Source: an uncultured Candidatus Saccharibacteria bacterium
GTDB lineage: Bacteria > Patescibacteriota > Minisyncoccia > Phycocordibacterales > UBA9973
Direction of reading: 5' to 3'
Length of the DNA: 64,000 bases
Assembly: GCA_964496425.1 (NCBI GenBank)
Contig: CAZBZO010000002.1
Location: 2,450 to 66,449, forward strand
Below the pieces are notes generated by a model that saw nothing but the letters and a program-made list of their open reading frames with translations, made no database searches and was not told the origin of the DNA. Every line of letters begins with the position of its first letter. Positions within the stretch are counted from its first letter, which is position 1. A program made the translations under genes and the position numbers. This document shows positions 23,246 through 62,260 of the stretch, in pieces.

Positions 23246-23285
23246 AAACAAACAAAGCCCTGCGTACGCAGGGCTTTGTTTGTTT
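23246..23285. terminator. 40-bp perfect palindrome / bidirectional rho-independent terminator
   Basis: aaacaaacaaagccctgcgtacgcagggctttgtttgttt; A-run upstream and T-run downstream, immediately after helicase stop. Confidence 0.75.
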
Positions 23286-43732: not shown

Positions 43733-44983
43733 TTAATTTCCAAGTTGCAGGTTTCCCTGTGCAAGAATAGTTTTAGAAAATTTTTTCTTTGTACGAGATT
43801 GCATATAACCAGCAATGGCGATCATGAGGGAATTATCGCCGGTCATGTCGGAGCGGGGGAAGAGGACATTAATGTCTAATTTCAAATTACTAATTACTAA
43901 TTGAAGTTGCTTACAGAGGTGTTTGTTGGCAGCTACGCCTCCTCCGACGATCAGTGTTTTGATTTTATAGTGCTCAATAGCTTTACATGTTTTTGCGACC
44001 AAAACATCCACAACGGCATCCTCGAATTCTCGAGCGATTTCATTTTTTATACTATTGTTTTGTAAAATTGCGGGATTTGGTTTTTTTAAATCCCGAAGCA
44101 AGTAAAGAACAGCGGTCTTAAGACCCGAGAAAGAAAAATCGTAGTCTTTGCTGTGGATCATTGGGCGCGGCAGAGTAACTTGTAACATGTCACTTGTCAC
44201 ATGTGATTTTAGCTTTCTCGCTATTTCTCCAAGCTTGGAAATCTGCGGTCCACCGGGATAGGGAAGCTCGAGCATGCGAGCGACTTTGTCGAAGGCTTCG
44301 CCAGCTGCATCGTCGCGTGTTTGTCCGAGGATTTTATATGAGCCCCACTTTTTCATAAGTACAAGCTCGGTATGTCCGCCAGAGACCAGCAAAGAAAGTG
44401 CTGGAAACTCTAAATCCGAAATTCTAAATTCTAATTTTTTCGATCTTAGAGTTTCGAGCTTAGAGTTTTGTTTCTGTTTTTGTTGAGGAACAAAAACAGA
44501 AAAGACGTGTCCTTCCATGTGATTGACTGGCACGACGGGAACATTCCATAGTTTTGCCAACGCTTGAGCGAAGTTGATGCCGACCCAGAGTGCTGGTTCA
44601 AGCCCCGGACCGACAGTGACGGCAATAAGATCGATACTGGGTTTTTTTATCGTAGGAATAAATTGTAAAAAATGCTCCAGGAGTTCAGGCTCACGCGTAA
44701 GGGCGGATTTGAGTTGTGCGATTTGAGACTGAGATAATTCAGGACCGCCTTTTTTTATTTTTACGAACAACTTTGATTTTTTGAGAACTTTTTCAAAGAG
44801 GGGAATGAGAGCCTTGGCATGTTCTCGCTTGGCCATCATTGGGAAGACGCCACCATATTGTTCATGCAGTTTGGCTTGCGAAGCGACCAGGTTGGCCTCC
44901 ACAGTAAAGACACCTTTCTTGTCTACGCTTACAATCGAAAGGGCTGTTTCATCGCACGATGTTTCAATAGATAAAATTCGCAT
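43733..44983 (-). CDS. tsaD: tRNA N6-adenosine threonylcarbamoyltransferase TsaD (with lineage-specific insertions)
   Basis: MRILSIETSCDETALSIV N-terminus, HMEGH metal site, VSGG; 416 aa vs ~340 typical, extra Lys/Gln-rich insert. Confidence 0.85.
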   Translation of the reverse strand: MRILSIETSCDETALSIVSVDKKGVFTVEANLVASQAKLHEQYGGVFPMMAKREHAKALIPLFEKVLKKSKLFVKIKKGGPELSQSQIAQLKSALTREPELLEHFLQFIPTIKKPSIDLIAVTVGPGLEPALWVGINFAQALAKLWNVPVVPVNHMEGHVFSVFVPQQKQKQNSKLETLRSKKLEFRISDLEFPALSLLVSGGHTELVLMKKWGSYKILGQTRDDAAGEAFDKVARMLELPYPGGPQISKLGEIARKLKSHVTSDMLQVTLPRPMIHSKDYDFSFSGLKTAVLYLLRDLKKPNPAILQNNSIKNEIAREFEDAVVDVLVAKTCKAIEHYKIKTLIVGGGVAANKHLCKQLQLVISNLKLDINVLFPRSDMTGDNSLMIAIAGYMQSRTKKKFSKTILAQGNLQLGN

Positions 44984-45004: not shown

Positions 45005-46540
45005 CTAAATTCCCCGCATGACTTCGATTTTGGCACCAAGAGTATTTAAGCGCCGAGCTAAATCAGCATAGCCACGGGTAATAGAATGCACATTGCGAAG
45101 CGTTGATACGCCTTCAGCTCCGAGCATGGCGATCAAGATAGAAGCTGATGGCCGGAGTGCGGGCGGGCAGATGATTTGGGCGCCACGAAGTTTGGTGCTG
45201 CCGGTAACGAGTGCTCGATGTTGATCAAGAAGTTTTACATCTGCACCTAAACGATTGAGTTCGGTAAAATAAATGGCTCGGTTTTCCCATGACCAATCAT
45301 GAATGAGGGTAGTGCCGGTAGCAATAGCAGAAATAGGCACAAAAAACGGCAGACTATCGTTTTGAAGTCCGGGAAAGGGTTGGGTGTGGAGCTTATCATG
45401 CAGTGCGTGCAATTTCGAAGGCGCAATAGTGATGTCGACAAGCTTCGTTTTGCCGTTTTTTGAAAGATACGGTGCACTTTGTGTGTACGACTGACCCATG
45501 CGAGAGAGTTTTTCAAGTTCAAGCTCGAGAAAATCAATCGGCACTCTTTTTATCGTGAGTGTCGAATGAGTCAGGATACCAGCTGCCAGGAAAAACATAC
45601 TTTCAATCGGATCTTCGCTATTGTAGTGTTCAACAGTTTGGTTTATGTCTGCGATACCGTGCACAATAAGTGTTGTCGTGCCGATACCTTCAATGACAAC
45701 GCCCATCTTTTCGAGTAAGAAACAGACATCTTGAACTTGATAGTTTGGCGGAGCAAACTTGATCGTTGTGGTACCAGGAATACGCGCAGCAGCCGCAATC
45801 ATACATATGGCTCCTGTGTCACTTGATTCGTAGAGAATGATCGTTCGATCTTTTTTGAGATTTTTTGGACGAGTAATGTGGTAGCCGTCCTCTTTGGTAG
45901 TGATTTTCACACCGAGCGTTTCCAGACCGTAGCGATTTGAAGAAATAGTACGCTCTCCCATTTTGCATCCACCAGCATGCGGAAAAACAAATTTATCTGC
46001 GTAGTGAATAAGACTACCAAGAAAGGTGGCACTTCTGGTTTTGGTAACTGCATCTCGATCGATATGATCAAATGTCATTTTTTTACCTGGTATGATTTCT
46101 ACGGTGTCTGCTGAAAGCCACCGTACCTCAACACCGAGACTTTTCATGATAGCAATGTAACGATACACTTCATCAATCTCTGGAATGCCATGGAGGATTG
46201 TTTTGCCGCGGTTGACTAATGCCGCACAGAACATATTGATTGCTCCATTTTTTGAAGTATTGGTGGTGATTGAGCCATGGAGCTTGCGGCCGCCGTAGAT
46301 TTTGAAATCAAGCGATTCTGACAAGCCGACAAGCTTGCGCTCCAGTACTTCACCGATCTTTGTGAGCTGTTCTAGGGTCAGATTTTGACCGCCTCTTTCC
46401 ATACGGGCGACCGCGCTTTGGGAGGTACCTAAGGCTTTGGCGAAATCGCTTTGAGTCATGGATTTTTCTTCGCGGAGTTTCTTTATTCGATCCCCAATTT
46501 TCTCGGAGTCGCTTTTCTGGGCTGTTTTTGTTGATGCCAT
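45005..46540 (-). CDS. murA: fusion protein: N-terminal XRE-family HTH domain + UDP-N-acetylglucosamine 1-carboxyvinyltransferase (MurA)
   Basis: HTH_3 segment (LREEKSMTQSDFAKALGTSQSAVARMERG) followed by complete MurA (KLHGSITTNTSKNGAINMF..., active-site GGCKMGERTISS, C-terminal ITRGYADLARRLNTLGAKIEVMRG). Confidence 0.8.
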   Translation of the reverse strand: MASTKTAQKSDSEKIGDRIKKLREEKSMTQSDFAKALGTSQSAVARMERGGQNLTLEQLTKIGEVLERKLVGLSESLDFKIYGGRKLHGSITTNTSKNGAINMFCAALVNRGKTILHGIPEIDEVYRYIAIMKSLGVEVRWLSADTVEIIPGKKMTFDHIDRDAVTKTRSATFLGSLIHYADKFVFPHAGGCKMGERTISSNRYGLETLGVKITTKEDGYHITRPKNLKKDRTIILYESSDTGAICMIAAAARIPGTTTIKFAPPNYQVQDVCFLLEKMGVVIEGIGTTTLIVHGIADINQTVEHYNSEDPIESMFFLAAGILTHSTLTIKRVPIDFLELELEKLSRMGQSYTQSAPYLSKNGKTKLVDITIAPSKLHALHDKLHTQPFPGLQNDSLPFFVPISAIATGTTLIHDWSWENRAIYFTELNRLGADVKLLDQHRALVTGSTKLRGAQIICPPALRPSASILIAMLGAEGVSTLRNVHSITRGYADLARRLNTLGAKIEVMRGI

Positions 46541-46547
46541 ATTGTGG

Positions 46548-46571
46548 AAGTATATCATATATGATATACTT
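46548..46571. promoter_or_regulatory. 24-bp perfect palindrome (aagtatatcatatatgatatactt) in murA/murB divergent intergenic region; candidate operator
   Basis: perfect dyad symmetry; contains TATGAT/TATACT -10-like hexamers in both orientations; 8 bp from HTH-MurA start codon. Confidence 0.5.
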
Positions 46572-46578
46572 GGCAAGT

Positions 46579-47607
46579 ATGATAGATATGCATCACAACG
46601 TCGCACTTGCTCGGTATTCAACGTTTCGAATGGGTAGTACGGCCGCATATTTTGCCAGTGTCTCGTCTTTGCCTGAAATAGAAGAGTGTCTTTCTTTTGC
46701 AGATGCTAATAATCTTCCCGTCATTGTGTTAGGCGGGGGATCCAATACAATATTTGCCTCAGTAGAGCCGCTCAATGCTTTCGTAATAAAAATAGATAGT
46801 AAGGGCAAAAAAATTATTTCTACAAATGAGAACAGTACGCTGGTGGAGATCGGAGCCGGGGAAAATTGGGACGATGTGGTGGCATGGAGCGTAGAAAATA
46901 ATCTCTCGGGAATTGAAATGCTCTCTGCCATACCTGGTACCTCTGGAGCTACCCCCATACAAAATGTTGGCGCATACGGTGGCGAGATCAAAAATGTCCT
47001 CGTATCACTTCGGGCCTACGATAGACATTCTCGTAGCGTTGTCACGCTTTCAAACACCGACTGTGGGTTTGGGTATCGCGATAGTATTTTTAAAAAAGAT
47101 GCTCGTGACCGTTATATTATTCTTAGTATTACTTTGCGACTATCTCCCCATGCACCCGAGGCTCCAGAGTACCCAGGTGTGAAGAAGTATTTTGATGAGA
47201 AGGGAATCGTTTCGCCCACTCTTTTGCAAATCCGTGAAGCTATTGTCGCCATCCGAGCCCATAAGCTGCCAGATCCCCGGGATATAGCATCGGTGGGTTC
47301 TTTTTTTAAGAACCCGTTTATAGAGACCCAAAAAGCGCTTACGCTCAAAACGAAGTATCCAACACTCGCTGTTTTCCCAGTAAGTGAAACTCAGGCGAAG
47401 ATAGGTGCGGGATCACTGCTTGATACGCTCGGACTTCGAGGAAAAGTATTTGGCAATTTGTCACTGTATGCCGGCAATGCATTAGTGATTGTAAACAATG
47501 GTCAGACGCGACCAGAAGAGCTTTTAGAACTCAAGGAGTACATTATTTCTGAAGTAGAAAAAAAATTCGGTATTACACTTGAACCTGAACCAGTGTTTGT
47601 GACTTGA
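46579..47607 (+). CDS. murB: UDP-N-acetylenolpyruvoylglucosamine reductase MurB
   Basis: FAD-binding PCMH domain (ARYSTFRMGSTAAYF...VLGGGSN), C-terminal MurB domain. Confidence 0.85.
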   Translation: MIDMHHNVALARYSTFRMGSTAAYFASVSSLPEIEECLSFADANNLPVIVLGGGSNTIFASVEPLNAFVIKIDSKGKKIISTNENSTLVEIGAGENWDDVVAWSVENNLSGIEMLSAIPGTSGATPIQNVGAYGGEIKNVLVSLRAYDRHSRSVVTLSNTDCGFGYRDSIFKKDARDRYIILSITLRLSPHAPEAPEYPGVKKYFDEKGIVSPTLLQIREAIVAIRAHKLPDPRDIASVGSFFKNPFIETQKALTLKTKYPTLAVFPVSETQAKIGAGSLLDTLGLRGKVFGNLSLYAGNALVIVNNGQTRPEELLELKEYIISEVEKKFGITLEPEPVFVT

Positions 47608-48093: not shown

Positions 48094-49779
48094 ATGGCAA
48101 ATATCCATAACCTGAAAATCAAAAACTTTAAGGGGATCAAGGAACTGGATCATACTTTTGGTCCAGCTAACTTGATTTGCCTGGTGGGTCGCGGGGATTC
48201 TGGAAAAACAACTATTCTCGAAGCAATTGAACGTGCATTATACCCGAACTGGAATCCATCTATAAGTGATAATGATTTTTATAACTGTGACATTTCTTTG
48301 CCGCTCGAGATAGAGGTAACACTCAAGGGGATTGCCGATAAGCTATTGAGCGATAATAAATATGGACTACATATTCGTGGTCTTCATGCGGATGGAATGA
48401 CTATTTGTGATGAAATTCAAGATGGGCAAGAAAAACTTCTTACAATACTGTTTAAAGTTGAAAAAGATCTGGAACCTAAATGGTTTGTAACAAGTCATCG
48501 CCCACATCAGGAGGACATGAAAATTGACACGGGAGATCGCTCTACTTTTAATGTTTTTTTGCTATCTGATTATCTGGATAAACATTTTTCATGGAGTAAA
48601 GGAACACCATTATTCGCTTTACTTAAACAGGACGGAAATATAGCAGAAAGTTCATTGTTACTAGATGCTGTTCGAGATTTAAAGATAGGGATCGATAGAG
48701 TAGGATTTCCTCATCTAGACACAGTTATTGATAGGGTTAAGAGTTCGACACTAAAATTTGGTGTCAATATCAATAATACTAAAACTAGCATTGATATAAA
48801 GGATCTTGCCATAAAGGATAGTAAGGTAATTCTTCATGATGACTTGGTTCCTTTAAAACTTAAGGGAAAAGGTTCAAAAAGACTTATTTCTGTTGCAATC
48901 CAAACGGAATTAGCAAAAGACGGGATATTATTACTTGACGAAATAGAACAAGGCCTTGAACCTGATAGAGTTAAGCATCTTGTCAGAACTCTTTGCTGTA
49001 ATACCAACGAACAAACATTTGTGACCACTCATTCACAGCAAGTAATTGAAGAACTTGAACCAGAAAATATATTTGTTGTGAATGCCGAAAATGGCATTGT
49101 GACTATCAAGCAAACAAATAGTGCTGAAAGCGATAAATATAAGAGTCTTTTTAGAACATGCTCTGAAGCACTGTATGCAAATCGAGTCATTGTTTGTGAA
49201 GGCAAAACTGAGCTTGGATTTTGCCGGTCCATAGACAAACAAAGAGTCCTATCATCATTACCATCAATGGCCATGAAGGGTGTTGTGTACTCCCTAGGTG
49301 GTGGTGATGGATTTAACAGAAAGGCAAAACAACTGAAAGAAAATCTTGGTAAAGAAGTTTGTGTTTTTTGTGATTCAGATAAAGATGAGGATATTGGTGA
49401 ACCAACAAAAGTTGAATTGAGAGCTTCAGGTATAGATATTTTTGATTGTGAGACACTTAATAATTTAGAACAACAGATTTCAAAAGATCTACCATGGGAA
49501 GGGATCGAGGAGCTTTGCAACTATGTTGTTCAAGATAAAAACATTAAGAAAGAATTTGCTCTTTATTTTAAAGAATTGACTACTTCTAGTTGGAATAACG
49601 CTGATACTCCTGAAAATAGAAAACTCTTTTCCGATGCAGCAAAAAAATATTCTTGGTTTAAAAGAATTGATCACGGTGAGAAACTAGGGGACATCTGTCT
49701 TAAATATAAGAGTCAATTAGCAGAAGACTCACGGCTAAAAGTGATTATCTCCGGAATAAATTCCTGGATAGAAATATGA
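48094..49779 (+). CDS. OLD-family ABC-type ATPase with C-terminal TOPRIM nuclease domain (class 2 OLD; GajA-like)
   Basis: Walker A GRGDSGKTT, ABC signature/Walker B LLLDEIEQGLEP...H, TTHSQQ; TOPRIM glutamates VIVCEGKTE and DxD CDSDKD. Confidence 0.75.
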   Translation: MANIHNLKIKNFKGIKELDHTFGPANLICLVGRGDSGKTTILEAIERALYPNWNPSISDNDFYNCDISLPLEIEVTLKGIADKLLSDNKYGLHIRGLHADGMTICDEIQDGQEKLLTILFKVEKDLEPKWFVTSHRPHQEDMKIDTGDRSTFNVFLLSDYLDKHFSWSKGTPLFALLKQDGNIAESSLLLDAVRDLKIGIDRVGFPHLDTVIDRVKSSTLKFGVNINNTKTSIDIKDLAIKDSKVILHDDLVPLKLKGKGSKRLISVAIQTELAKDGILLLDEIEQGLEPDRVKHLVRTLCCNTNEQTFVTTHSQQVIEELEPENIFVVNAENGIVTIKQTNSAESDKYKSLFRTCSEALYANRVIVCEGKTELGFCRSIDKQRVLSSLPSMAMKGVVYSLGGGDGFNRKAKQLKENLGKEVCVFCDSDKDEDIGEPTKVELRASGIDIFDCETLNNLEQQISKDLPWEGIEELCNYVVQDKNIKKEFALYFKELTTSSWNNADTPENRKLFSDAAKKYSWFKRIDHGEKLGDICLKYKSQLAEDSRLKVIISGINSWIEI

Positions 49780-51182
49780 GTGAGACATTTGATGTAAGAT
49801 CTTTTGCAACCGCGCGGGATAATGTTTTAATTGCTCCAGCAGGTTTTGGCAAAACCCATTCAATTAGTGAATGTCTTAAGTACACTCATGGTAGACAACT
49901 TATTCTAACGCATACTCAAGCTGGTGTCGCTTCTATTAAAGACAAGCTACAAAAATGTTATATCAGTAAAGACAAATACAGTGTGGAGACCATATCTAGT
50001 TTTGCTAAAAGGTATGTGGTTTCCTTCGATAATTCAACAAGTATTCCAAATGAAACAGATGATAACTTCTATCCTTATTTCATTGAACAGGCAACCAATT
50101 TGTTATCTTCAATCTTAGTACAGGATATAATAAAGCTTTCCTACTCAGGCTTGTTTGTTGATGAATATCAAGACTGTACTATTAAGCAACATAATTTAAT
50201 ATTGATATTGGCCGGAATACTGCCAACCCACGTTTTAGGTGATCCTTTACAAGGAATTTTTGGTTTTGCTGGCGATCTAGTTGATCTAAATGACTCTCCT
50301 CAGATGGGTAGATTCAATACAGTCCATTATTTGAAAGTCCCTCATCGGTGGATCATTGGGGGTAATAAGCAACTTGGAACGGATTTACTACAAATAAGAG
50401 AGAAATTGCAATTAAATCTTGAAATTGAATTAAAGCACTTTCCATCCATAGAATTTAGGCAAGGAGGTTATTTAGATCATTATAATTTCATAATGGAAAC
50501 CCTAAAAAACTGTGATAGCGTCTTAGTAATTGATCCTAATTCAATGAGATTAAGTAACAGGGAAAAGTTTGTTGTTACTTTCAAGTATATTCCCTTACTA
50601 ATTGAAGCATTTGATGGGAAGGACTTTTATTCTTCCGCGATCCATTTTGATAATAAAAACAATCTTCCTGCTAGTGAGGTTTTACACAAGTTTATTGAAG
50701 GTAAGTTTTCTAATTTAGATAATTGGTACGATAAGACTAATAGGAGATTCAGAAAAAAAAGAAACCCTGTTGAAGAGAAGGAGTTGTTCGTGATAAAACA
50801 ACTTATGAGTAGGTTGGAATTAAGTTACTCACTAATGGATTTGAAAGAGGTCATATTTAGAATAAGAAATTTAAAGGGTGTTAACTGCGCGAGAAGGGAT
50901 CTTTTAAGTTCTCTGAGTAGATCAATGGAAGATGCTCATTATTCAAGAATCTCAGTACTGGAAGCAATGAGAAACAATCGAAATGGGATAAGGAGATTAG
51001 GTAGAAAAATGTATGGCAAATGTGTAGGTACAACTCTTCTAACTAAAGGGTTGGAGTTTGAAACCGTAATTATATTAGATGCAGATAAATTTAATGACCC
51101 CAAGAATTTTTATGTTGCAATATCAAGATGTATTAAGAGGCTTATTATACTTGCCAGTAATAGTAAATTAAATCCGTATTAA
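49776..51182 (+). CDS. short UvrD-like superfamily-1 helicase (GajB-like)
   Basis: Walker A APAGFGKTH, motif II VDEYQD, C-terminal motif VI-like TLLTKGLEFETVIILDAD; 4-bp overlap with upstream ATPase. Confidence 0.7.
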   Translation: MSETFDVRSFATARDNVLIAPAGFGKTHSISECLKYTHGRQLILTHTQAGVASIKDKLQKCYISKDKYSVETISSFAKRYVVSFDNSTSIPNETDDNFYPYFIEQATNLLSSILVQDIIKLSYSGLFVDEYQDCTIKQHNLILILAGILPTHVLGDPLQGIFGFAGDLVDLNDSPQMGRFNTVHYLKVPHRWIIGGNKQLGTDLLQIREKLQLNLEIELKHFPSIEFRQGGYLDHYNFIMETLKNCDSVLVIDPNSMRLSNREKFVVTFKYIPLLIEAFDGKDFYSSAIHFDNKNNLPASEVLHKFIEGKFSNLDNWYDKTNRRFRKKRNPVEEKELFVIKQLMSRLELSYSLMDLKEVIFRIRNLKGVNCARRDLLSSLSRSMEDAHYSRISVLEAMRNNRNGIRRLGRKMYGKCVGTTLLTKGLEFETVIILDADKFNDPKNFYVAISRCIKRLIILASNSKLNPY

Positions 51183-51830: not shown

Positions 51831-52748
51831 TTAGTAAGTCTTATTGAGCAAGGGGTCAAAGACCATTTTGTAATTAGAATCTTTTACAAAATCATGCTCA
51901 TCGAATTCAAGAATAGTTTGTTTCAGGTTAAAATTATACGCTTCTGTTTTGGATTGAATAAAAAAACTTACTCCCTCAGCATTGCCAAAAAAATGCCTTT
52001 GTGGATTCGTTACATTTTCATGAAGTAGTTTTGCATGGAATATTTCACTATTAAAGTAATGAAGTATTCTCTTGTGAACTTCCCCAAAATAATCTTTACC
52101 GGAATCAGTGCCGTTAAAATATTCTCCGTGTACCAATCTATGCCTTAATCCAGATCGAGAATTTCCTTTTATGCCAAATAATTCGATTTTAAGCTCTTTC
52201 CCTAGTATTAGTTCAATAAAGTTAAAGTCCTTTTTGTCATTTCTTTTGGCAAGAGCTTCAATGGCTGAAAACATGAGCAGCAACTTAGAAGAATACCCAG
52301 TAGCATTGGTTGCATCATTCCAATAAAAGTAGAATTCATCGGGTATCTGGAGGTTCCTATGAAGTACATCCAATGCCTTCAGATGGTCTTCCATGAACAT
52401 TAGTCCAACAGGCGACCTATCTTTCACAATTCTTATAAATGCTGTATCAGAATCTTCCCTATGAATAAGAAAAGATTCATTCACAAAATCAATATAGCAT
52501 TGAGAGATAAGGGCAATCTTGGGAATAATCTGAAGTAGTTTTAATCTAAATTCCTTGAAAGCTTCATGGAAGTCAGCTGCTTCAAATGTTGCTTCAGCCA
52601 GCCAGGCATCTCCTTTCCATCCATATGCATGATTGAAATCCCATTGTGAAAGGGTTATGTCATCAATCGCAAATGATGCTGGATTATCCTTTCCGATAAT
52701 TGCATTGTGAGCAAGAGTTGTAATGCGATGCTGAATTTTATACTTCAT
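51831..52748 (-). CDS. hypothetical protein, island-encoded (possible Rx4H/HEPN-like motif RHRLVH)
   Basis: 305 aa ORF, AT-rich codon usage like neighbouring Gabija genes; no confident domain. Confidence 0.4.
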   Translation of the reverse strand: MKYKIQHRITTLAHNAIIGKDNPASFAIDDITLSQWDFNHAYGWKGDAWLAEATFEAADFHEAFKEFRLKLLQIIPKIALISQCYIDFVNESFLIHREDSDTAFIRIVKDRSPVGLMFMEDHLKALDVLHRNLQIPDEFYFYWNDATNATGYSSKLLLMFSAIEALAKRNDKKDFNFIELILGKELKIELFGIKGNSRSGLRHRLVHGEYFNGTDSGKDYFGEVHKRILHYFNSEIFHAKLLHENVTNPQRHFFGNAEGVSFFIQSKTEAYNFNLKQTILEFDEHDFVKDSNYKMVFDPLLNKTY

Positions 52749-53207: not shown

Positions 53208-56200
53208 ATGCTTTTTTTTAATCAAAAAAAAATAAAAGACCAAGAAAACAATCAAATTCAGGATGTTTTTTTTGATTCAGCCAAAAGCATCATCAATCTT
53301 AAAAAAAAGACGCCATTTATTGAATTTCACTTTGAAAATTCAATTATTCTATTTAAAAAATACGAACGAAAATTGTTTGTCACCCTTGCAATATTTTTTG
53401 GAGTTGCAATTTTTAGTATGTTTTATGTCACCACGGCGAATGTTGCTGTTTTTTATTCAAGTAAATGTCTTGGGGGGTGGGAACATCCAGAAAACGCCGA
53501 AGGTAAGCCATCGCTTTCTTCTGGAGCTCATGCAGAAGATTTTACCAAAAATAATTCTGCATATGTGAAAGAACATTCTGCCTCTATGTACTGCGGCGAA
53601 TTTGACGGCGTAGTTCCCGTGGATGCTATACCTAAAACTTTCAAGCTTTCTCTGGCCTGGTCTGTTGATAATGGAACCGTTCGTCATCGCGAACCAAAAC
53701 CGTTTGATCTTTCCACTGAGTTTGAACCAGATACGAGTACCGCGGTAACTGATGAGAATAAAAATGATGATATTTTAAACGAAGGTGGTGAACAGGAAGA
53801 AATTATAACGGATGAGTCTAGAGAGAGTACTGACATCCTACAAGTAGAAGAGCGTGATAGTTCTCCTGAAACCGATCCTCAAGATGAGGAAGCATCCAGT
53901 GAGGATATTTCCTCAGAACAGAGTGATGAATCTTCAGACCAGCAAACATTCTTTGAGCGATTATTTACTAAAAAAGTATTTGCCCAAGAAGAAAATTCTG
54001 AAGGTACGAGCTCTGAGAGTTCTTCAAATAACAATGACTCAACATCTACCGAAAATGGATCTGAGAGCTCGGACTCAAGCTCGGATAATAAGAATGGTTC
54101 CGAACCATCAGGCGATGCTCCACAAGATTCTGAAAGCATAACAGAAAACGAGCCTTCAAACGTTCCGACTCAAGGATCGGAACAGAATAGAGATACTTCC
54201 GTACGGGATCAGAGAGAAATAACAGAGAAGAAAAATCGAATAAAAAAGGAAACAGGAAGCATCCCCGAAACGGAGCCAGTGGTAGACGGGTTTATGGAAG
54301 TTTCTTATACATTAGATGGAGCAACCTGGAACAGTCTGGGACAAGTCAGTATGAATAATTGGCAAGACGTATCTTTCGATATCCCACTTACCGCCTGGGC
54401 GGACCTTTCAACATTTCAAATCGGTTTTCAAACCCTAGCCAATCTTGATGAGTCACCGGCAATATATATAGACAGCGTGAGCGTCGAAGTGCAATATGAA
54501 ACAGAACAAGAAAACTTCAATCTTGAAGTTCCTACTGTAAAAATAATAGATTCGTCTGAAAATATCATTTTCAGCGACATGACAACATTCTCTTCCCAAG
54601 ACGAACCGTTCTTCGATGTAGTTAATCCAAAATATAGTGAGAGTGATTTACTTTTACTTATTAATGAAGGCAAAATTGAGATTGTAGAAGATACAGATAA
54701 GATGATAGATCTTTGGGAAATGCCCAGTATGCTCGAAGATCCGGTAAAAAATAGTATTGAATCAATCAAAAGTATTGTTAATCCAACAGTGTCGCATACA
54801 CCTTCTCAGATAGAGGAAGAAACTTTCTCTTCTCAAGATGAAGAGCAAGGTTCGGCGGGGCCACGCCGGAAGTCTACTCTTGAAATCATCGAAGGTTCTC
54901 CTCCTGACGAGCAAGCGCAAGAAGAGACCACAAACGGAGCGATTCAATTAAAAGAAAATACTTCCGAAGAATCTCCTGCAATTGAAAGTGATGGTGAGAA
55001 TATAGATCAATCAGAAGAAGGAGATAATGAGATTATATCAATGCTCCCCAAACAGAGCCTTGATCGTTATTGGGGAAATAGAATAAAATCTGAAAAAACA
55101 AACTCAATAATAAGTAATCAGAGTGGAGGTACTTCGAAAGCTTTTTTATTTGGGCCATATATTGCTCATGCGCAAGAAGAAGAAGCTCTGCATCTGAATG
55201 ATATTGTTGCGGAAGTGTTTGATTCTCAAGGTAAAACAGATATACAGACAAGTATAACAACCGTGATTATCGGTGGAGTACAAAAGAGAAGAGTCAATAT
55301 AGAGCGACCACAGCAATTCCGACCAGGAACGTATACCTTGCGGATAACATTGAGAGGAGAAAATGCAAATATTATTTCAGAGCAGAATTTTACGTGGGGA
55401 GTACTTGCGATCAATATTGACCGCTCAATAGAATTGCCTGGGGAAGATGCCTATATTCAAATGGCCGTGCTCAACGATCTTGGGCATACGCTGTGTAACG
55501 CTGATCTTTCACTTGAAATCAAAAGTCCTAGTGGTATCGTTACTCATTTCAATACAAGTGACGCTACTATTGTGTCTGCACAAGAATGTGGCGTAGATAA
55601 TATTATCCCAGTTCCAGACTATTTCAGTCACTACACTGTTTCAAACGAGATTGGTGTTTACTCAATGACACTAACTGCCGAGACGTTAAACGGCACAAAA
55701 ACGATTACTGATTCATTTGAAACAAAGGCATCTCCACTATTTGATGTTGTTCGTACCGGACCTACCAGAATAAATCCAACTGCTGGATATCCTGTGACTA
55801 TTGAAATTACCCCAAAGGCAGATTGGAATGGTGTTATAACCGAAACCGTACCGATTGATTTTACGATTTCACCGCCGATGAGAAGTATTGCATATGACAG
55901 TATTGAAATAGTAAACAATAAAAAAAATATTACGTGGAATATATCCTTGATTAAGGGTGAGACAACAACAATCGGCTATTACTTTGATGCACCGGACGAA
56001 AGTCCTCAATTTTATTTGTTGGGTCCCCTTGATTTTAGCCTACTTTCATTTAAAGGTTTGAAAACTACTTCTGTTTTTCAAGAAGCACGTGAGTGGCAAA
56101 TTGCAAGTGACGTTGCGACTATCGTACTTTTAACGACTGGTACGAGCTGGAGTGTGCCTGTAGACTTTGATCCAGCAAACAATACGATCGAAGGTATTGG

Positions 56201-59200
56201 CGGCGGCGGCGGCGGTGGTGGTGGAACGAATGGAACAGGAGCACAGGGTCGTGGTGGTGGCGGAGCTGGTGGTGGAGGTGAATATAGAAAAATTTCGAAT
56301 TTCAATCCAGGCGGTGCTGGATCAATATCATATGTAATTGGACAAGGTGGAACTTTCGGTGCAGCAAATACAAGTGGTAGTAATGCTACTGATACGACAT
56401 GGAATAGTACATCACTTGTTGCAAAAGGTGGACTTTTAGGAACGAATACTGGAGCAGGCACTGGTGGTACAGGTGGTGCTGGTGGTACTGGTGGTACTGG
56501 AGCTGCAGGAAATAATAATGGTGGTAAAGGTGGCCGTGGAGGAAACCGTTCTGTGACATTAGGCGGTGGTGGCGGTGGTGGAGGAGGTGCCGGTGGGACA
56601 AGTGCAGTTGGGGGCGCAGGAACAAACGGTACTGCTGGTAGTACTGGGGGTGCAGGAGGTGCGGGAGGTAATGCTTCTGGTGGAACAGCAGGAACGAGTA
56701 ATGGTGGGGCTGGAGGAGCTGGTACTGTTTGGACCGACAACTCAGGTGGCGCCAATAATGGTATACAAGGTGGTGCTGGTGGTGGTGGCGGAGGAGGACT
56801 TGCCAGTGCCGGTGCCGGTGGTGCATCAGGTACTGCTGGTAATTATGGAGCTGGCGGTGGCGGTGGTGCTGGTGGAGGTTCAGGTTCTTCAGCTGGAAGT
56901 GCTGGCAAGGCAGGAGCAAATGGTATTATTGCTATTACCTATACTCCGTTTACTATTTCAGGGACTGCAAATGGTAATGATACCGCAACTGTAAGAGTTG
57001 CTATTAATGGAACTTTACAAGCTCAAACAGGCACTATTTCTGCTAGTGCTTGGTCTATAAGTGGAGTCACTTTACCAACGTCTGGGGATATTATTACTGT
57101 TTGGGTAGATAACGTAAGTGACGCAAATGAATCAAGTGCGGTAACCAAGTGGAGTTCTGGTAGTGTTTCTAGTATGGTGCTTAACACCAATTTTTTAACA
57201 ATTGGAAGTAATCAAAATACAAGTTTGACGGTCACTAACCTTGGTCAATATGATTCTGACAATGATGAGGACATTATGCATACTGCGAATAGTGGGGCTT
57301 TCTTAGTGCAAGCATCTGGCAATACATATACAGGAGAAACCATCACAATAGCGTCAAGTAATACACTAACAGTTAGTACCGGTGAATCACTTACAACTGA
57401 AAAGATGATTATAAGTGGAACAGTAACTTCGTCAGGTACTGCCACCTATACATTTACTGCAACATCTGGGACACTACTTACGAGAACTGGAACATTCACT
57501 CAAAGTAATTCAACGGTTAATGTTACATCAGCATCAGGAACCCCTACATTCCTCTCTGCTGCAGTCACATTTCATATTCTTACTATTAATGCAGCTGCAA
57601 CGGTCATAAATGCTGGCGCAGTGATTACTATTGATGACACAAGTGGAGCTTTGCTCTACATTCAATCTGGAGTTCTCAATGACGATGGTTTGGGAATATC
57701 AACTTCGGCTTCTACCGCTAATACATTGCAAATAGATTCTGGTGGTACGATGTGTTTAGGTGGATCAAGTTCAAATACATCTGCAACTTGCAACACTGGC
57801 ACCGTATCAACGACGACAAGGTCTATGCCAGCATTTAGTACGTATACATTAAATGCTTCTTCGACTATTATTTATTTATCAGACGCAGACACAACTATTT
57901 CATCTACACCAACCTATGGTAATTTGAAATTACAGCCAAAATTCGTAACTACTGCACGTACCTATACCTTGAATGGCGCTATGACCATTAATGGTAATTT
58001 TGATATAAATCCCGAAGAATCAGGTGCGGGTACTCCTGCGCTTACAGTTAATGCCGGAGGTACCATTACAGTTGCGACAACAAAAACAATAACTTTGACA
58101 CGATCAAATAGTTCAAGTAGCTCTCTTGATCTAAGGCCCTCATCAACTGATTATAATCTTTCAACAGGGTTTTTGGTTGTGGCCACTGGTGGCACGCTTG
58201 ACGCAGCCAGTGCTTCGTCAACGATTACGCTTACAGGTACTTCTGGAACGCTATTTACAAAAGCTGGCACATTTACCCAAGGCACTTCTGATGTGGTTGT
58301 CACCAGTGCTTCAGGGACACCAACATTATTATCTGCCGGAACTACATTTCACAGGTTGACGATTAATAGCGCTGCAACTGTCATAAATGCAGGCGCAGTG
58401 ATTACTATGTCGAGTGCTGATGCCAATAACAGACTCTATATTCAAACTGGTGTGCTCAACGATGGAGGTAGTCAAATTGTTGGCACGGCAAATGGGACAA
58501 TGCTCATAGATGGAGGGGCAATGCTCTGTATTAATGGCACGGTGGGTGGGACCAATGCGACATGTAATAGCGGAGCAGCTGTTAATGGTGGATCAGGTGG
58601 ATTCCCAACCAACTATACCACTGGCAATATTACTCTTGCTGTTACTTCTACGGTTGCCTATCTTGGAAATGGTGGTTTGAGCATTTCATCCACGCCTACG
58701 TACGGGAATTTAAAATTGATCCCGGTACTAGCTTCAACAAATAAAAGTTATACATTTTCTGGTGTTACAACGATAAATGGAGATTTTACGATCCTACCTT
58801 CAGGTGCCGCACTGGAATTAAAAGTAAAGTTAGGCGGTGATCTAACGGTGGCTGCAACTAAAACGACAACAATTTCAAATAGCGGAGTTCCAACCTCTTT
58901 GTTGCAGCTGCGTCCAGTGAGTACAGATTATAATCTGACCACTGGCTTTTTGAGTGTCAGTAGTGGCTCCGAGCTCGATGCAACTCTCAGTGCATCGACT
59001 ATTACAATTACTGGGACATCAGGTACGCTGTATACAAATGCAGGGACATTTAGTAACGGAAGTACAGAAGTAAACTTTTCAGGTAATGGTAGTGCGACGA
59101 TCAATTCCGGTAGTATTACATTTAATAATTTTAGAAGTTCTGGTACGGGCACAAAAAGCCTCGGTGTTTCAGGAATTTCTGTTGCGAATAATATATTTAT

Positions 59201-60956
59201 TACCGCAGGTACGTTTAATCCAAACGGAGTAACTATGACAGGTTCAGGAATCAGTAACGTACTAACGGCGACTAATAGTACTTTATTGGTGGATAAAAAT
59301 ACCACTACAGCATTTTCGGATAATTATTCAAGTATGGAAACAGTAACACTTGGTACCGGTTCGACGGTTGACTACATGGGAAGTGGTTCGCAGACAATTA
59401 GTAGTTCGTTCGGTTATGAAAATATAAAAACCTCAACAGGAGGTACCAAGACTTTAAATGGTACTACTGTTGCAAATGGATCAATTACTATTACTACATC
59501 AACACTCACCACTGCAGGTAATACACTGACTGCTCTGAGCATTTCAGTTGATGGAACAAGTACATTTACTGCTAGTTCGACATCTACGGTCACCATTACT
59601 GGCACGACAGGACCAGTTTTTACGCTTACCTCAGGAGGCGCATTTAATGCAAATTCTTCATCTTTTGTTTTTAACGGCAATGCGACCATGACGCTTCTTT
59701 CTGGTACATTCACCGGCGGTAATGCGTTTAACGACGTCACATTCTCTCCAACGGTTTCGGTAGGTGGTAATAAAACCTACACTCCAAGTTCTACGGCAGT
59801 AGCGATAAATGGCAATTTTACTATTAATCCTTCCGCATCGGTTATCACAACAACTTTGATAGTAAATTTAGCCGCAAATCTTACTGTTGCAACAAATAAA
59901 ACAATAACAATCCAAGGTACCGGTACAGGATTAGGTAGAATTGATTTACAGTCATTTGCCTTGAGCGCGGGTTCGATGTCAATTGCGTCAACCGGCACGG
60001 TCCTTGGTAATACCGGGAGTATTACATTAGCTGGCAGTTGGACGAATGGTGGTACTTTTACTGAAGGAACATCGACAGTGACTTTAAATAGTGGCACAAC
60101 AGCAGTCGTGACAGGTACGACAACATTTTACAATCTTACTATTACTCATACTGCAGCCAAAGAAGTTGATTTCGCAACTTCGGGTACTCCGATTTTTCAC
60201 GTGACGAATGCTTTTGTTGTAACGGGAAGTTCGGGCAATCTTATTAAATTATATTCAGATTCCGCCGGTACTCAGTGGGAATTTCATCCGACAGGCACGG
60301 CCTCGGTTGATTACGCTGATGTGAAAGATGGTGGTTGTCAGTCGGGCGCTATTACTATTACGCCCACAAACTCGATCAACAGCGGCAACAATGATTCGTG
60401 TTGGTTTTTTGCAAGTGCATTATCGTTTGATATTGATACAGCATTAACTGATGCCGAGTCTGCTTCGCCGTACTCAGTAGCGTTGGGTACACTTACCACT
60501 TCGGATACCAGGGTCTCAGGCAGTACTGATAGCATCAATTATATTTGGCTTGATATTAGCAGCAGTGCGCCTGGTGGGGCGGTTATAACGGTCCTCAATG
60601 CCAATGGATCAAACGGCCTCGTTTCTACCTCAAAACCAACAAGTACCATAAATAGCACGGATGGTTCAGTAGCGGACGGAACGGAAAATTATGGGTTGTG
60701 CGTTGTCTCAGTATCTACAAGTTCTGGTACCTTAGATGATGAAGGGGGATATGATGGAGACACGTGCGCGGGTAACAGCGAAACTAATAATGTTCAGGAG
60801 CTTAGTTCGTCCGGTGAGATACTACTTGATACCAATGGAGCCGCGATTACTGCCGGAAGGGCACAAATTGCCGTAAATGCATCCATAAGTTCCGTAACTC
60901 CTGCACATGATGATTATACCGATACGCTTATATTTTTAGTAACAGGAACGTTTTAG
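53208..60956 (+). CDS. giant (2582 aa) repeat-rich cell-surface protein with N-terminal TM, acidic/Ser-rich region, Gly-rich low-complexity block, Thr/Ser/Gly-rich ~270-aa tandem repeats and a conserved ~190-aa C-terminal domain
   Basis: single uninterrupted ORF; repeats e.g. TSASGTPTFLSAAVTFHILTINAAATVINAGAVIT / TSASGTPTLLSAGTTFHRLTINSAATVINAGAVIT; C-terminal domain homologous to C-terminus of ORF 61121..62260. Confidence 0.8.
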   Translation: MLFFNQKKIKDQENNQIQDVFFDSAKSIINLKKKTPFIEFHFENSIILFKKYERKLFVTLAIFFGVAIFSMFYVTTANVAVFYSSKCLGGWEHPENAEGKPSLSSGAHAEDFTKNNSAYVKEHSASMYCGEFDGVVPVDAIPKTFKLSLAWSVDNGTVRHREPKPFDLSTEFEPDTSTAVTDENKNDDILNEGGEQEEIITDESRESTDILQVEERDSSPETDPQDEEASSEDISSEQSDESSDQQTFFERLFTKKVFAQEENSEGTSSESSSNNNDSTSTENGSESSDSSSDNKNGSEPSGDAPQDSESITENEPSNVPTQGSEQNRDTSVRDQREITEKKNRIKKETGSIPETEPVVDGFMEVSYTLDGATWNSLGQVSMNNWQDVSFDIPLTAWADLSTFQIGFQTLANLDESPAIYIDSVSVEVQYETEQENFNLEVPTVKIIDSSENIIFSDMTTFSSQDEPFFDVVNPKYSESDLLLLINEGKIEIVEDTDKMIDLWEMPSMLEDPVKNSIESIKSIVNPTVSHTPSQIEEETFSSQDEEQGSAGPRRKSTLEIIEGSPPDEQAQEETTNGAIQLKENTSEESPAIESDGENIDQSEEGDNEIISMLPKQSLDRYWGNRIKSEKTNSIISNQSGGTSKAFLFGPYIAHAQEEEALHLNDIVAEVFDSQGKTDIQTSITTVIIGGVQKRRVNIERPQQFRPGTYTLRITLRGENANIISEQNFTWGVLAINIDRSIELPGEDAYIQMAVLNDLGHTLCNADLSLEIKSPSGIVTHFNTSDATIVSAQECGVDNIIPVPDYFSHYTVSNEIGVYSMTLTAETLNGTKTITDSFETKASPLFDVVRTGPTRINPTAGYPVTIEITPKADWNGVITETVPIDFTISPPMRSIAYDSIEIVNNKKNITWNISLIKGETTTIGYYFDAPDESPQFYLLGPLDFSLLSFKGLKTTSVFQEAREWQIASDVATIVLLTTGTSWSVPVDFDPANNTIEGIGGGGGGGGGTNGTGAQGRGGGGAGGGGEYRKISNFNPGGAGSISYVIGQGGTFGAANTSGSNATDTTWNSTSLVAKGGLLGTNTGAGTGGTGGAGGTGGTGAAGNNNGGKGGRGGNRSVTLGGGGGGGGGAGGTSAVGGAGTNGTAGSTGGAGGAGGNASGGTAGTSNGGAGGAGTVWTDNSGGANNGIQGGAGGGGGGGLASAGAGGASGTAGNYGAGGGGGAGGGSGSSAGSAGKAGANGIIAITYTPFTISGTANGNDTATVRVAINGTLQAQTGTISASAWSISGVTLPTSGDIITVWVDNVSDANESSAVTKWSSGSVSSMVLNTNFLTIGSNQNTSLTVTNLGQYDSDNDEDIMHTANSGAFLVQASGNTYTGETITIASSNTLTVSTGESLTTEKMIISGTVTSSGTATYTFTATSGTLLTRTGTFTQSNSTVNVTSASGTPTFLSAAVTFHILTINAAATVINAGAVITIDDTSGALLYIQSGVLNDDGLGISTSASTANTLQIDSGGTMCLGGSSSNTSATCNTGTVSTTTRSMPAFSTYTLNASSTIIYLSDADTTISSTPTYGNLKLQPKFVTTARTYTLNGAMTINGNFDINPEESGAGTPALTVNAGGTITVATTKTITLTRSNSSSSSLDLRPSSTDYNLSTGFLVVATGGTLDAASASSTITLTGTSGTLFTKAGTFTQGTSDVVVTSASGTPTLLSAGTTFHRLTINSAATVINAGAVITMSSADANNRLYIQTGVLNDGGSQIVGTANGTMLIDGGAMLCINGTVGGTNATCNSGAAVNGGSGGFPTNYTTGNITLAVTSTVAYLGNGGLSISSTPTYGNLKLIPVLASTNKSYTFSGVTTINGDFTILPSGAALELKVKLGGDLTVAATKTTTISNSGVPTSLLQLRPVSTDYNLTTGFLSVSSGSELDATLSASTITITGTSGTLYTNAGTFSNGSTEVNFSGNGSATINSGSITFNNFRSSGTGTKSLGVSGISVANNIFITAGTFNPNGVTMTGSGISNVLTATNSTLLVDKNTTTAFSDNYSSMETVTLGTGSTVDYMGSGSQTISSSFGYENIKTSTGGTKTLNGTTVANGSITITTSTLTTAGNTLTALSISVDGTSTFTASSTSTVTITGTTGPVFTLTSGGAFNANSSSFVFNGNATMTLLSGTFTGGNAFNDVTFSPTVSVGGNKTYTPSSTAVAINGNFTINPSASVITTTLIVNLAANLTVATNKTITIQGTGTGLGRIDLQSFALSAGSMSIASTGTVLGNTGSITLAGSWTNGGTFTEGTSTVTLNSGTTAVVTGTTTFYNLTITHTAAKEVDFATSGTPIFHVTNAFVVTGSSGNLIKLYSDSAGTQWEFHPTGTASVDYADVKDGGCQSGAITITPTNSINSGNNDSCWFFASALSFDIDTALTDAESASPYSVALGTLTTSDTRVSGSTDSINYIWLDISSSAPGGAVITVLNANGSNGLVSTSKPTSTINSTDGSVADGTENYGLCVVSVSTSSGTLDDEGGYDGDTCAGNSETNNVQELSSSGEILLDTNGAAITAGRAQIAVNASISSVTPAHDDYTDTLIFLVTGTF
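56200..56920 (+). repeat. Gly-codon (GGN) low-complexity tract inside giant ORF
   Basis: runs of ggcggcggcggtggtggt...; antisense proline-rich ORFs here are artefacts. Confidence 0.85.
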
Positions 60957-61120: not shown

Positions 61121-62260
61121 ATGAATAAATTTTTACGTAAAAGTACAGCGATTGCTCTCACGCTCGCAATGCTTGTTTCAGTTTCTTATCTTCATTTTCA
61201 AACCCTGCAAGCGGCGACGATCACAAGCGCTAAGGCTACATTTGGAAGACTTAAAGCTAGTACTGCGAATGAATTTGGCACAATTGAATTTGCGACTCCA
61301 ACCGGTATTCAAACAGGAGGCGCGGATACTATCACGCTTACGTTCAGCGCGGATTTTACTCTTGCAGCAGAAGTTGCAAACAACTACGATATTGAACTCG
61401 GGGATAGCGCTACGTGTTCTACGGCTACATATACTGATGAAGTCGTTGCGCTTTCGCCTTCAGCAACCGATTGGGGACTCGATATTACTGGCCAAGTAAT
61501 TACGCTTTCTCCGGAAACCGACCAAGTACTTACTGCTGGGTTTTGTATGAGACTTGTCTGGGGTACCGCTGCAACCACTGGTGCAACTGGATCATCAAGT
61601 ACGATTACAAACGGTGCAGTAGATGATGATGACACAATTACTATTGCAGGTGCCTTTGGGGATACCGGGACTATTACCGTAGATATTATCGATGATGACC
61701 AAGTCACTGTGACTGCTAGCGTCAACCAGTCTATTACATTTGACCTCGATGCCACAGTGGCAGACGGAGAGACCGGTACTCCTTACAACGTTGCACTTGG
61801 TACGATCACTACGACTGATACTCGCGTCTCAGGGTCAACAGATAGCGTTAACATGATTGTTGCGGAAGCTGACACCAATGCTTCCGGCGGGGTAGTGGTA
61901 ACAGTACGTAACGCGAACGGTTCAAATGGCCTAGTGTCTACCTCTGTTCCAGCTGATAACATAAATAGCGCTGATGCGGCAATGATTGATGGTACGGAAA
62001 ATTATGGTCTCTGTGTTATCACTGCAGGACTAAGCGGATTTACAATCGCAACTCCGTATGCGTCAAATACGTGCGCGACAAACTCTGAGACAAACGACGT
62101 AGAAGCACTTACAACAACAGGAGAAAACATTTTGAGTACAACAGCACCAGTGTCTGCTGCTCATGCAGAAATTTCGGTCAATGCTGCTATATCTGGCACT
62201 ACTGTTGCTCACTCAGACTACACGGATACGCTGACATTTATTGCAACTGCAACTTTCTAA
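61121..62260 (+). CDS. secreted protein sharing the ~190-aa C-terminal domain of the giant protein (WxL/CscB-like candidate)
   Basis: signal peptide MNKFLRKSTAIALTLAMLVSVS; C-terminal region (ITFDLDATVADGETGTPYNVALGTITTTDTRVSGSTDS...SDYTDTLTFIATATF) ~60% identical to giant protein C-terminus. Confidence 0.7.
   Translation: MNKFLRKSTAIALTLAMLVSVSYLHFQTLQAATITSAKATFGRLKASTANEFGTIEFATPTGIQTGGADTITLTFSADFTLAAEVANNYDIELGDSATCSTATYTDEVVALSPSATDWGLDITGQVITLSPETDQVLTAGFCMRLVWGTAATTGATGSSSTITNGAVDDDDTITIAGAFGDTGTITVDIIDDDQVTVTASVNQSITFDLDATVADGETGTPYNVALGTITTTDTRVSGSTDSVNMIVAEADTNASGGVVVTVRNANGSNGLVSTSVPADNINSADAAMIDGTENYGLCVITAGLSGFTIATPYASNTCATNSETNDVEALTTTGENILSTTAPVSAAHAEISVNAAISGTTVAHSDYTDTLTFIATATF

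Follow-up and report, generated by a model that had tools for sequence, protein, structure and literature searches.

Does the enzyme MurA, in some bacteria, control the transcription of its own gene? MurA is the enzyme with which cell-wall precursor synthesis begins in bacteria; it carries out the committed, tightly regulated step of peptidoglycan synthesis and is the target of fosfomycin. The question is raised by the murA gene on contig CAZBZO010000002.1 of an uncultured Candidatus Saccharibacteria bacterium, of which we analyzed a stretch of 64,000 nucleotides (the window, whose coordinates are used throughout). Here MurA is fused to an N-terminal helix-turn-helix (HTH) domain, and a perfect palindrome lies immediately upstream of the gene, in the short region shared with the divergent murB. 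Comparison of the protein and its upstream region across related genomes makes it quite probable that the protein is a bifunctional enzyme-repressor, an active MurA that uses its N-terminal XRE-type HTH to repress the promoter of its own gene. To our knowledge, the known regulation of MurA acts after translation, and we know of no described regulation of cell-wall synthesis in Patescibacteria with tiny genomes (Paceibacteria/Nomurabacteria).

The HTH-MurA fusion protein

The gene and the parts of its product are located as follows.

45005-46540, minus strand: HTH-MurA fusion gene, 511 amino acids plus stop in one open frame, with Pfam HTH_3 and EPSP_synthase domains
46331-46510, minus strand: XRE/Cro-C1-type HTH domain, residues 11-70 (PF01381; four helices in the AlphaFold2 model; solved relatives)
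46397-46423, minus strand: predicted recognition helix with its N-cap, S40-Q41-S42-A-V-A-R-M-E48 (model helix at 41-48; co-variation of residue 40)
46307-46330, minus strand: flexible linker between HTH and MurA, residues 71-78 (low model confidence at 71-75; MurA models start matching at 79)
45008-46306, minus strand: MurA (UDP-GlcNAc 1-carboxyvinyltransferase) domain, residues 79-511 (NF006873, Foldseek, catalytic residues)
45965-45967, minus strand: codon of the catalytic Cys192, within the MurA domain

The frame runs uninterrupted from the ATG at 46540 to the stop codon ending at 45005. The original prediction, made from the sequence of the window, described the first ~70 residues as an HTH domain and the rest as a complete MurA with its active-site cysteine, and both descriptions hold. 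HTH_3 (PF01381) matches residues 19-70 (E=7.7e-13, 48.7 bits against a Pfam cut-off of 23), EPSP_synthase (PF00275) matches residues 83-496 (E=6.5e-41) and the MurA models of NCBIfam match residues 79-508. In an AlphaFold2 single-chain model built with 59 homologues (mean predicted local distance difference test, pLDDT, of 87.5), the N-terminal segment is predicted to form a helical bundle with helices at residues 11-25, 30-37, 41-48 and 56-66; pLDDT is 82-90 at residues 11-50 and 72-74 at residues 51-70. It falls below 50 in linker residues 71-75, and a MurA fold comes after the linker. According to PDB sequence matches, the nearest solved relatives of the HTH are the controller C-proteins of restriction-modification systems, HipB and SinR. 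The modelled MurA fold superimposes on solved MurA structures with target-normalised TM-scores of 0.86-0.91 (Foldseek, E about 1e-35).

The active-site cysteine, C192, resides in the loop GGCKMGERT, which aligns with the catalytic loop GGCAIGQRP of the solved MurA 5ujs. Through the same structure, K97, C192, R197, D395 and R463 can be equated with the catalytic K22, C115, R120, D305 and R397 (E. coli numbering), and all five are invariant among the 59 homologues. With every catalytic residue intact, the enzyme half looks active. HTH residues Q30, Q41, R46, E48, G50, Q52 and N53 are invariant among the homologues as well, a pattern that points to strong purifying selection on the fused HTH. A second murA was not found within the window.

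A trivial explanation of the fusion would be an assembly or annotation artefact, either a frameshift or a mis-join of a small XRE gene to murA. Since the fusion is in frame both in the best 120 of 7,852 database homologues, which represent independent clusters, and in 80 genomes of the GTDB, the chance of an artefact is practically nil. All of those 120 homologues carry PF01381 and PF00275 and are about 500-520 amino acids long, and the HTH is included in 80/80 loci of GTDB species-representative Patescibacteria (60-71% identity; one clade, picked by similarity). The original prediction had named a frameshift separating the two domains as the observation that would overturn it and had proposed looking for the architecture in related genomes; one continuous frame was found in both sets, and the same frame recurs in hundreds of assemblies made independently, among them complete genomes from Nonomuraea cultures. 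It had also named a structure prediction in which the segment does not fold as an HTH, and the predicted helical bundle speaks against that as well. Those of the 120 that are named belong to metagenome-assembled genomes (MAGs) of Paceibacterota, Parcubacteria or Patescibacteria, where public annotation calls them simply MurA. Across the fusion proteins, the public names are either MurA or 'helix-turn-helix domain-containing protein'. When residues 1-130 of the query, which span the junction, were searched against 1.84 billion cluster representatives, 201 clusters (50% identity) were retrieved at E<=1e-10, and approximately half of the 150 clusters listed extend from the HTH into the beginning of MurA. 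HTH-MurA is apparently what a large clade of Patescibacteria (Paceibacteria/Nomurabacteria) has as its standard MurA. The original prediction of an unusual enzyme-regulator fusion is therefore correct as to kind, and wrong if taken to mean rare. We found no description of an HTH-MurA fusion in a literature search.

Two side observations concern copy number and domain context. Two different HTH-murA loci, L020 and L055, come from the same MAG assembly (CAYWEW01), representing either paralogues or a mixed bin. The junction search also brought up long proteins, P0121 (1002 amino acids), P0126, P0154, P0178 and P0219, with 7-11 tandem XRE-type HTH repeats, each of which is 30-35% identical to the fused HTH.

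The palindrome and its co-variation with the fused HTH

The region between murA and murB contains the following elements.

46548-46571, no strand: perfect 24-bp palindrome AAGTATATCATATATGATATACTT, unique in the window, above chance and with a conserved core
46551-46568, no strand: conserved 18-bp operator-like core TATATCATATATGATATA, kept upstream of HTH-murA in 72/76 loci
46549-46576, minus strand: predicted murA promoter with -35 box TTGCCA (46576-46571), 16-nt spacer and extended -10 box TG-n-TATACT (46557-46549)
46562-46570, plus strand: mirror-image extended -10 box TG-A-TATACT on the murB side, 8 nt upstream of its ATG, read from the sequence
46579-47607, plus strand: murB (UDP-N-acetylenolpyruvoylglucosamine reductase), divergent from murA and with the dyad in common (NF000755; Pfam FAD_binding_4 and MurB_C)

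The perfect 24-bp palindrome reported earlier is present at 46548-46571. Its distance from the murA ATG is 7 nt (46541-46547) rather than eight, and the 38-nt gap to murB, inside which it lies, is correct with the murB start at the ATG at 46579. The identity of murB itself is secure (335.5 bits with NF000755, for which the cut-off is 277). The window contains no further copy of AAGTATATCATATATGATATACTT, even at 3 mismatches. Perfect palindromes with arms of at least 8 number two in the 64 kb, this one included, and an arm length of at least 12 was reached in 1 of 200 simulations under a first-order Markov model.

Conservation of the palindrome was assessed by scanning the 80 GTDB loci (76 usable; 640 kb) with the pattern TATANCANNNNTGNTATA, allowing at most one mismatch. 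The core TATAnCA-N4-TGnTATA is found just 5' of HTH-murA in 72/76 loci, usually 8-11 nt before the ATG, with only 10 further sites elsewhere in the 640 kb. Positions 9 and 10, unconstrained in the pattern, are nevertheless A and T in 73/73 sites. As a guard against ascertainment bias, we also anchored the search on the right half, TGnTATA, alone. Under this anchor, the left half matches at 6/6 positions in 53 of 67 loci and at 5/6 in another 11, versus a background in which only 13 of 573 TGnTATA sites elsewhere have a left half matching at 5/6 positions or better. The dyad is therefore not something that promoters of this genome share in general. The upstream neighbour is co-directional in 40 loci, several of which show a terminator hairpin or tRNA gene just upstream, and the left half is perfect in 36 of the 40; hence, it does not serve a divergent gene or a second promoter there, and the dyad cannot be explained as a divergent promoter only. 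The core is kept regardless of whether murB is divergent. Symmetry is maintained even where the sequence changes, since positions 5 and 14 change jointly, with T/A at 53 sites and G/C at 11.

The right half of the dyad coincides with a predicted promoter. In a consensus scan, the murA promoter has 10/12 consensus matches and the TG of an extended -10 box. With 8 nt between the end of the -10 box and the ATG, an mRNA from this promoter would have little or no leader. Position 20, the last T of the -10 box, is T in 57/73 sites, versus A in just 33/73 at the mirror position, suggesting an additional promoter constraint on the right half. Leaderless transcription is plausible in this genome because Shine-Dalgarno (SD) motifs are scarce (6 of 44 likely genes in the window, with none 5' of murA) and because TGnTAnnnT boxes lie 6-9 nt before the ATG of several first genes, among them valS (start 43118) and the genes at 3661-4512 and 20925-21887. 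These features suggest that transcription without a leader, from promoters with an extended -10 box, is common here. On the other side of the dyad, murB is divergent in 24 loci, and in 19 of these its ATG lies at a distance of 8-12 nt from the left core edge.

If the HTH binds the dyad, contacts between the two might be expected to leave a trace in both sequences, and co-variation of this kind is observed. Residue 40, a serine or threonine just before the recognition helix, correlates with the symmetric operator positions 5 and 14. The N-terminal motif of the recognition helix is K-T-S-Q-S in most loci. Fifteen loci have C at position 14 (usually accompanied by G at position 5), and 14 of them read K-T-T-Q-S, whereas T-T-Q-S occurs in none of the 60 others. 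On a neighbour-joining tree of 75 tips, for which only the MurA domain was used, parsimony assigns 6 steps to the T-T-Q-S state and 7 to the operator state, with 74/75 tips concordant. Direct readout would be expected to make the protein and its site change together more than once, as seen here. By an ungapped comparison with GTTQQS, we take residue 40 to correspond to Thr27 of the 434 repressor, beside the base-contacting glutamines. The fused HTH is thus a likely binder of the dyad, as judged from the two sets of sequences.

Taken as promoter architecture only, the palindrome would consist of back-to-back extended -10 boxes serving no regulator, and the HTH would be a passive leftover. Both halves do read TGnTATAcT toward a start codon 8 nt away, similar boxes precede other genes of this SD-poor genome and the mirror layout with murB recurs in the 19 of 24 loci noted above. 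Nevertheless, we regard this explanation as highly improbable. A left half that stays perfect in the absence of a divergent gene has no place in it, nor does the symmetric change of positions 5 and 14, of which position 14 is the free 'n' of TGn. It also leaves the co-variation of these positions with the protein, and the strong purifying selection suggested for the HTH, without a cause.

Further operator copies that would constitute a regulon were sought in the window, and the murA/murB site was the only one; matches to the core at 2 mismatches number 6 versus 2.8 expected, which is not above chance. In relatives, extra dyads occur 10-42 nt 5' of a thioredoxin-reductase/AhpF-like (trxB-like) gene (L021:250, L024:254, L050:1169), 5' of NUDIX hydrolase genes (L026:7941, L085:3685) and 33 nt 5' of a gene for an 87-amino-acid protein of no assigned family (L054:342, L070:2410). 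The genes behind these dyads are possible further regulon members; the trxB-like and NUDIX candidates were not found in the window.

Distant relatives and other occurrences of the site

The fusion extends to proteins that have probably lost MurA activity. Distant fusions P0141, P0147, P0172, P0187, P0209 and P0227 retain the motif TSQSA[VI][AN]R[IM]E-G-QN in the HTH, whereas the GGC catalytic loop is gone in all six and the equivalents of the Lys, Asp and Arg are also gone in two. The dyad is still present at each of these pseudo-enzyme fusions. In L083 (2504-7791), TATAACATATATGCTATA lies 9 nt before the pseudo-MurA gene, which is divergent to a canonical murA-murB pair and has a murF-like gene after it. 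In L084 (2388-6467), the dyad is 18 nt 5' of the pseudo-MurA gene, with murB nearby. L085 (3685-6554) contains one dyad before the NUDIX gene and another 9 nt before a glmU-like nucleotidyltransferase gene, which leads into the pseudo-MurA fusion gene as an operon.

These relatives raise the possibility that the MurA-like domain is mainly a ligand sensor also in the window, the protein being chiefly a transcription factor and catalysis being secondary or supplied by another murA. In agreement with this, the distant members have kept the HTH and the dyad after losing the GGC loop, one of them resides beside a canonical murA-murB pair, and the protein of the window scores under the MurA equivalog cut-offs. 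We nonetheless consider it unlikely for the protein studied here, in which, as in its close homologues, the catalytic residues are all invariant and the MurA fold is closely matched (TM-score 0.86-0.91). Moreover, the 64 kb contain no second murA, and the gene adjoins murB, as would be expected of a working enzyme pair.

Outside Patescibacteria, cultured Nonomuraea have the fusion as well, and the cluster concerned has 246 members. The copy of N. phyllanthi (L081 6001-7530, corresponding to 5673057-5674586 of CP045572.1) has kept the catalytic cysteine and is 46% identical to the query over query residues 14-129. At this GC-rich copy, AATCTCATATGTGAGATA, with symmetric arms ATCTCA-N4-TGAGAT, is located 11 nt before the GTG start codon; the chance expectation is 0.10 matches per locus at up to 3 mismatches. 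The gene begins 16 nt after a formyltransferase/enoyl-CoA-hydratase fusion gene, and a phage-type integrase gene adjoins, suggesting horizontal transfer into Nonomuraea.

The provenance of the site is broader than that of the fusion. A metagenome scan for the exact 18-mer TATATCATATATGATATA returned 80 loci, and most of the occurrences away from HTH-murA are in AT-rich DNA with no adjacent open reading frame (ORF). Five, however, are 5' of HigB(Gp49-like)/HigA operons (L097:922, L111:3381, L131:3572, L141:24, L143:5571), and three are 5' of small XRE genes (L087:3420, L100:2257, L120:6150). The L120 protein has 74 amino acids and the motif LKTSQSAVARMESGKQNMT, and its HTH is 58% identical to that of MurA. 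With 13 of the 80 adjoining HTH-murA and eight at XRE or HigBA-like genes, exclusive use of the 18-mer by HTH-murA is ruled out. The HTH and the dyad look like a module common to antitoxins and small regulators, which murA would have captured.

Accordingly, a separate XRE protein, for instance a HigA-type antitoxin, has to be considered as the protein that binds the dyad, the fused HTH then serving dimerisation or protein contact. The identical 18-mers 5' of HigBA-like operons and small XRE genes speak for it, as do the few additional sites before trxB-like, NUDIX and other genes. Weighed against these are the company that the dyad keeps with the fused gene in 72/76 species, in Nonomuraea and in the pseudo-enzyme branches, and the operator variant, which follows a residue of the fused HTH itself in 74/75 tips. 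No free XRE gene adjoins the site in the window. Binding by a separate protein in place of the fused HTH therefore seems quite unlikely to us.

Proposed repression by HTH-MurA and its relation to known systems

We return to the enzyme-repressor, which would operate as follows. Two HTH domains, the number implied by the symmetry of the dyad, would bind the two half-sites of TATAtCA-N4-TGaTATA (core 46551-46568). This dyad overlaps the predicted extended -10 box of murA, together with the transcription start expected of a leaderless promoter, and, at this locus, also the mirror -10 box of the presumably leaderless, divergent murB promoter. HTH-MurA, as it accumulates, would fill the site and shut out RNA polymerase. 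Transcription of murA and murB would thereby be held down, a negative autoregulation of the first two committed steps of UDP-N-acetylmuramic acid (UDP-MurNAc) synthesis. Occupation of the dyad by a protein would hide the -10 boxes and start points of the two genes; repression is therefore favoured. The idea of direct (auto)regulation of murA and murB, advanced in the original prediction, now has strong comparative support in the conserved footprint, the co-directional loci and the co-variation of the HTH. The sequences and their comparison show the fused architecture and its conservation, the conserved dyad, the overlap of the dyad with consensus promoter elements, the co-variation and the intact catalytic residues; the binding of DNA, its dimeric nature, an effect by repression and not activation and any modulation by MurA ligands are inferred.

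Several observations weigh against this model. The first group concerns the protein. NF006873 scores 295.2 bits, just under its cut-off of 297, and TIGR01072, with 276.5 bits, is well under its cut-off of 392.7. Divergent MurA proteins are common in Patescibacteria, and we read the scores as those of a divergent MurA. None of the solved MurA chains among the 50 best structural and 33 sequence matches extends its alignment into the HTH. MurA is generally regarded as monomeric, and the protein has no visible dimerisation element that would bring two HTH domains together. The second group concerns the site. Its right half is a plausible extended -10 box, and promoter function would explain part of the conservation of the dyad. 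Only 13/80 exact metagenomic 18-mers adjoin HTH-murA, and since other XRE proteins use the same 18-mer, another XRE protein could occupy the site. Finally, the conserved loci were picked by similarity within one clade, and the tree used for co-variation is a simple one of that clade.

Ligand control would be an attractive extension of the proposal. In this extension, which is possible although we would not yet favour it, the MurA domain would be an allosteric sensor, so that a single protein gauges precursor flux and sets murA/murB transcription. Occupancy by UDP-N-acetylglucosamine and phosphoenolpyruvate (PEP), or locking by UDP-MurNAc, would alter how the pair of HTH domains is presented to the dyad. 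A split of the module in sister lineages would have yielded a dead pseudo-MurA sensor-regulator in control of a separate canonical murA-murB pair, and the module would also have moved horizontally into Nonomuraea. The retention of the whole MurA-like domain in the pseudo-enzyme relatives is the only hint of ligand-switched DNA binding. Solved MurA structures among the Foldseek matches (3swd, 3su9, 8d84) hold UDP-MurNAc, the product of MurB, making a ligand signal for the fused repressor plausible. In known MurA control, tight binding of UDP-MurNAc with the PEP-Cys adduct acts post-translationally, whereas the fusion would act on transcription. Regulated proteolysis of MurA is known in Firmicutes.

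One close analogue of the proposed arrangement is BirA, in which an N-terminal HTH and an enzyme domain from the pathway under its control form one polypeptide that binds a palindromic operator over divergent promoters (PMC6391492, PMC4462617). HTH-MurA has a similar layout, with an HTH and a pathway enzyme in one chain and a palindrome over divergent promoters. The two proteins differ in fold, BirA having a winged HTH and HTH-MurA an HTH of the XRE/Cro-C1 type. They also differ in ligand control, since dimerisation and DNA binding of BirA are driven by biotinyl-AMP, while control of HTH-MurA by a ligand is only hypothesised here. Finally, BirA acts on a biosynthetic operon of another pathway, and HTH-MurA would act primarily on its own gene.

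Bifunctional enzyme-regulators have previously been predicted in the same manner, as in the case of RbkR, which was recognised by comparative genomics from conserved palindromic sites (PMC5397151). Like the trigger enzymes RbkR, PutA and NadR, HTH-MurA is an enzyme fused to a DNA-binding domain with genes of its own pathway as candidate targets: the dyad is at murA and murB, and in distant relatives it is linked to murA-murB, murF-like and glmU-like genes. RbkR, PutA and NadR differ from HTH-MurA in their DNA-binding folds and chemistry. As a class, XRE regulators act as dimers on palindromic sites and control their own expression (PMC12565409). C.Esp1396I, C.AhdI, HipB, HigA and SinR share with the fusion a related HTH and an AT-rich palindrome over their own promoter, and all of them are dimers. 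The C-proteins, HipB, HigA and SinR are proteins of 70-110 amino acids with dimerisation helices or toxin partners, whereas the HTH of HTH-MurA is tethered to a 430-amino-acid enzyme.

A literature search returned no trigger enzyme acting on peptidoglycan precursor synthesis. If the model is true, MurA would repress both the murA and the murB promoter, which would add a new layer of control, and HTH-MurA would be the first regulator of the trigger-enzyme type that we have found for cell-wall precursor synthesis. The hypothesis is easily testable, since the operator, the specificity residue 40 (S/T) and the matching operator variants are all predicted. A homologue is available in cultured Nonomuraea, and the natural pseudo-enzymes provide a separation-of-function series.

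One more gene may belong to the same transcript.

43733-44983, minus strand: tsaD, 21 nt downstream of murA (Pfam TsaD, E=4.4e-74)

No terminator-like site was found between murA and tsaD, and the latter is possibly co-transcribed with murA. On the other side, a Gabija defence pair identified by PADLOC is located directly downstream of murB on the plus strand (48094-51182), consisting of GajA (48094-49779, E=1e-156) and GajB (49776-51182, E=4e-119). The pair resides in a low-GC island, with a GC content of 0.34-0.38 at 48-54 kb versus about 0.44 elsewhere. A giant ORF of 2,583 amino acids (53208-60956, plus strand) is located downstream of the Gabija island, and the ORFs at 51831-52748, 61121-62260 and 62272-63306 are without a Pfam match. 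Elsewhere in the window, a perfect 40-bp palindrome, AAACAAACAAAGCCCTGCGTACGCAGGGCTTTGTTTGTTT, at 23246-23285 between two plus-strand genes resembles a bidirectional intrinsic terminator.

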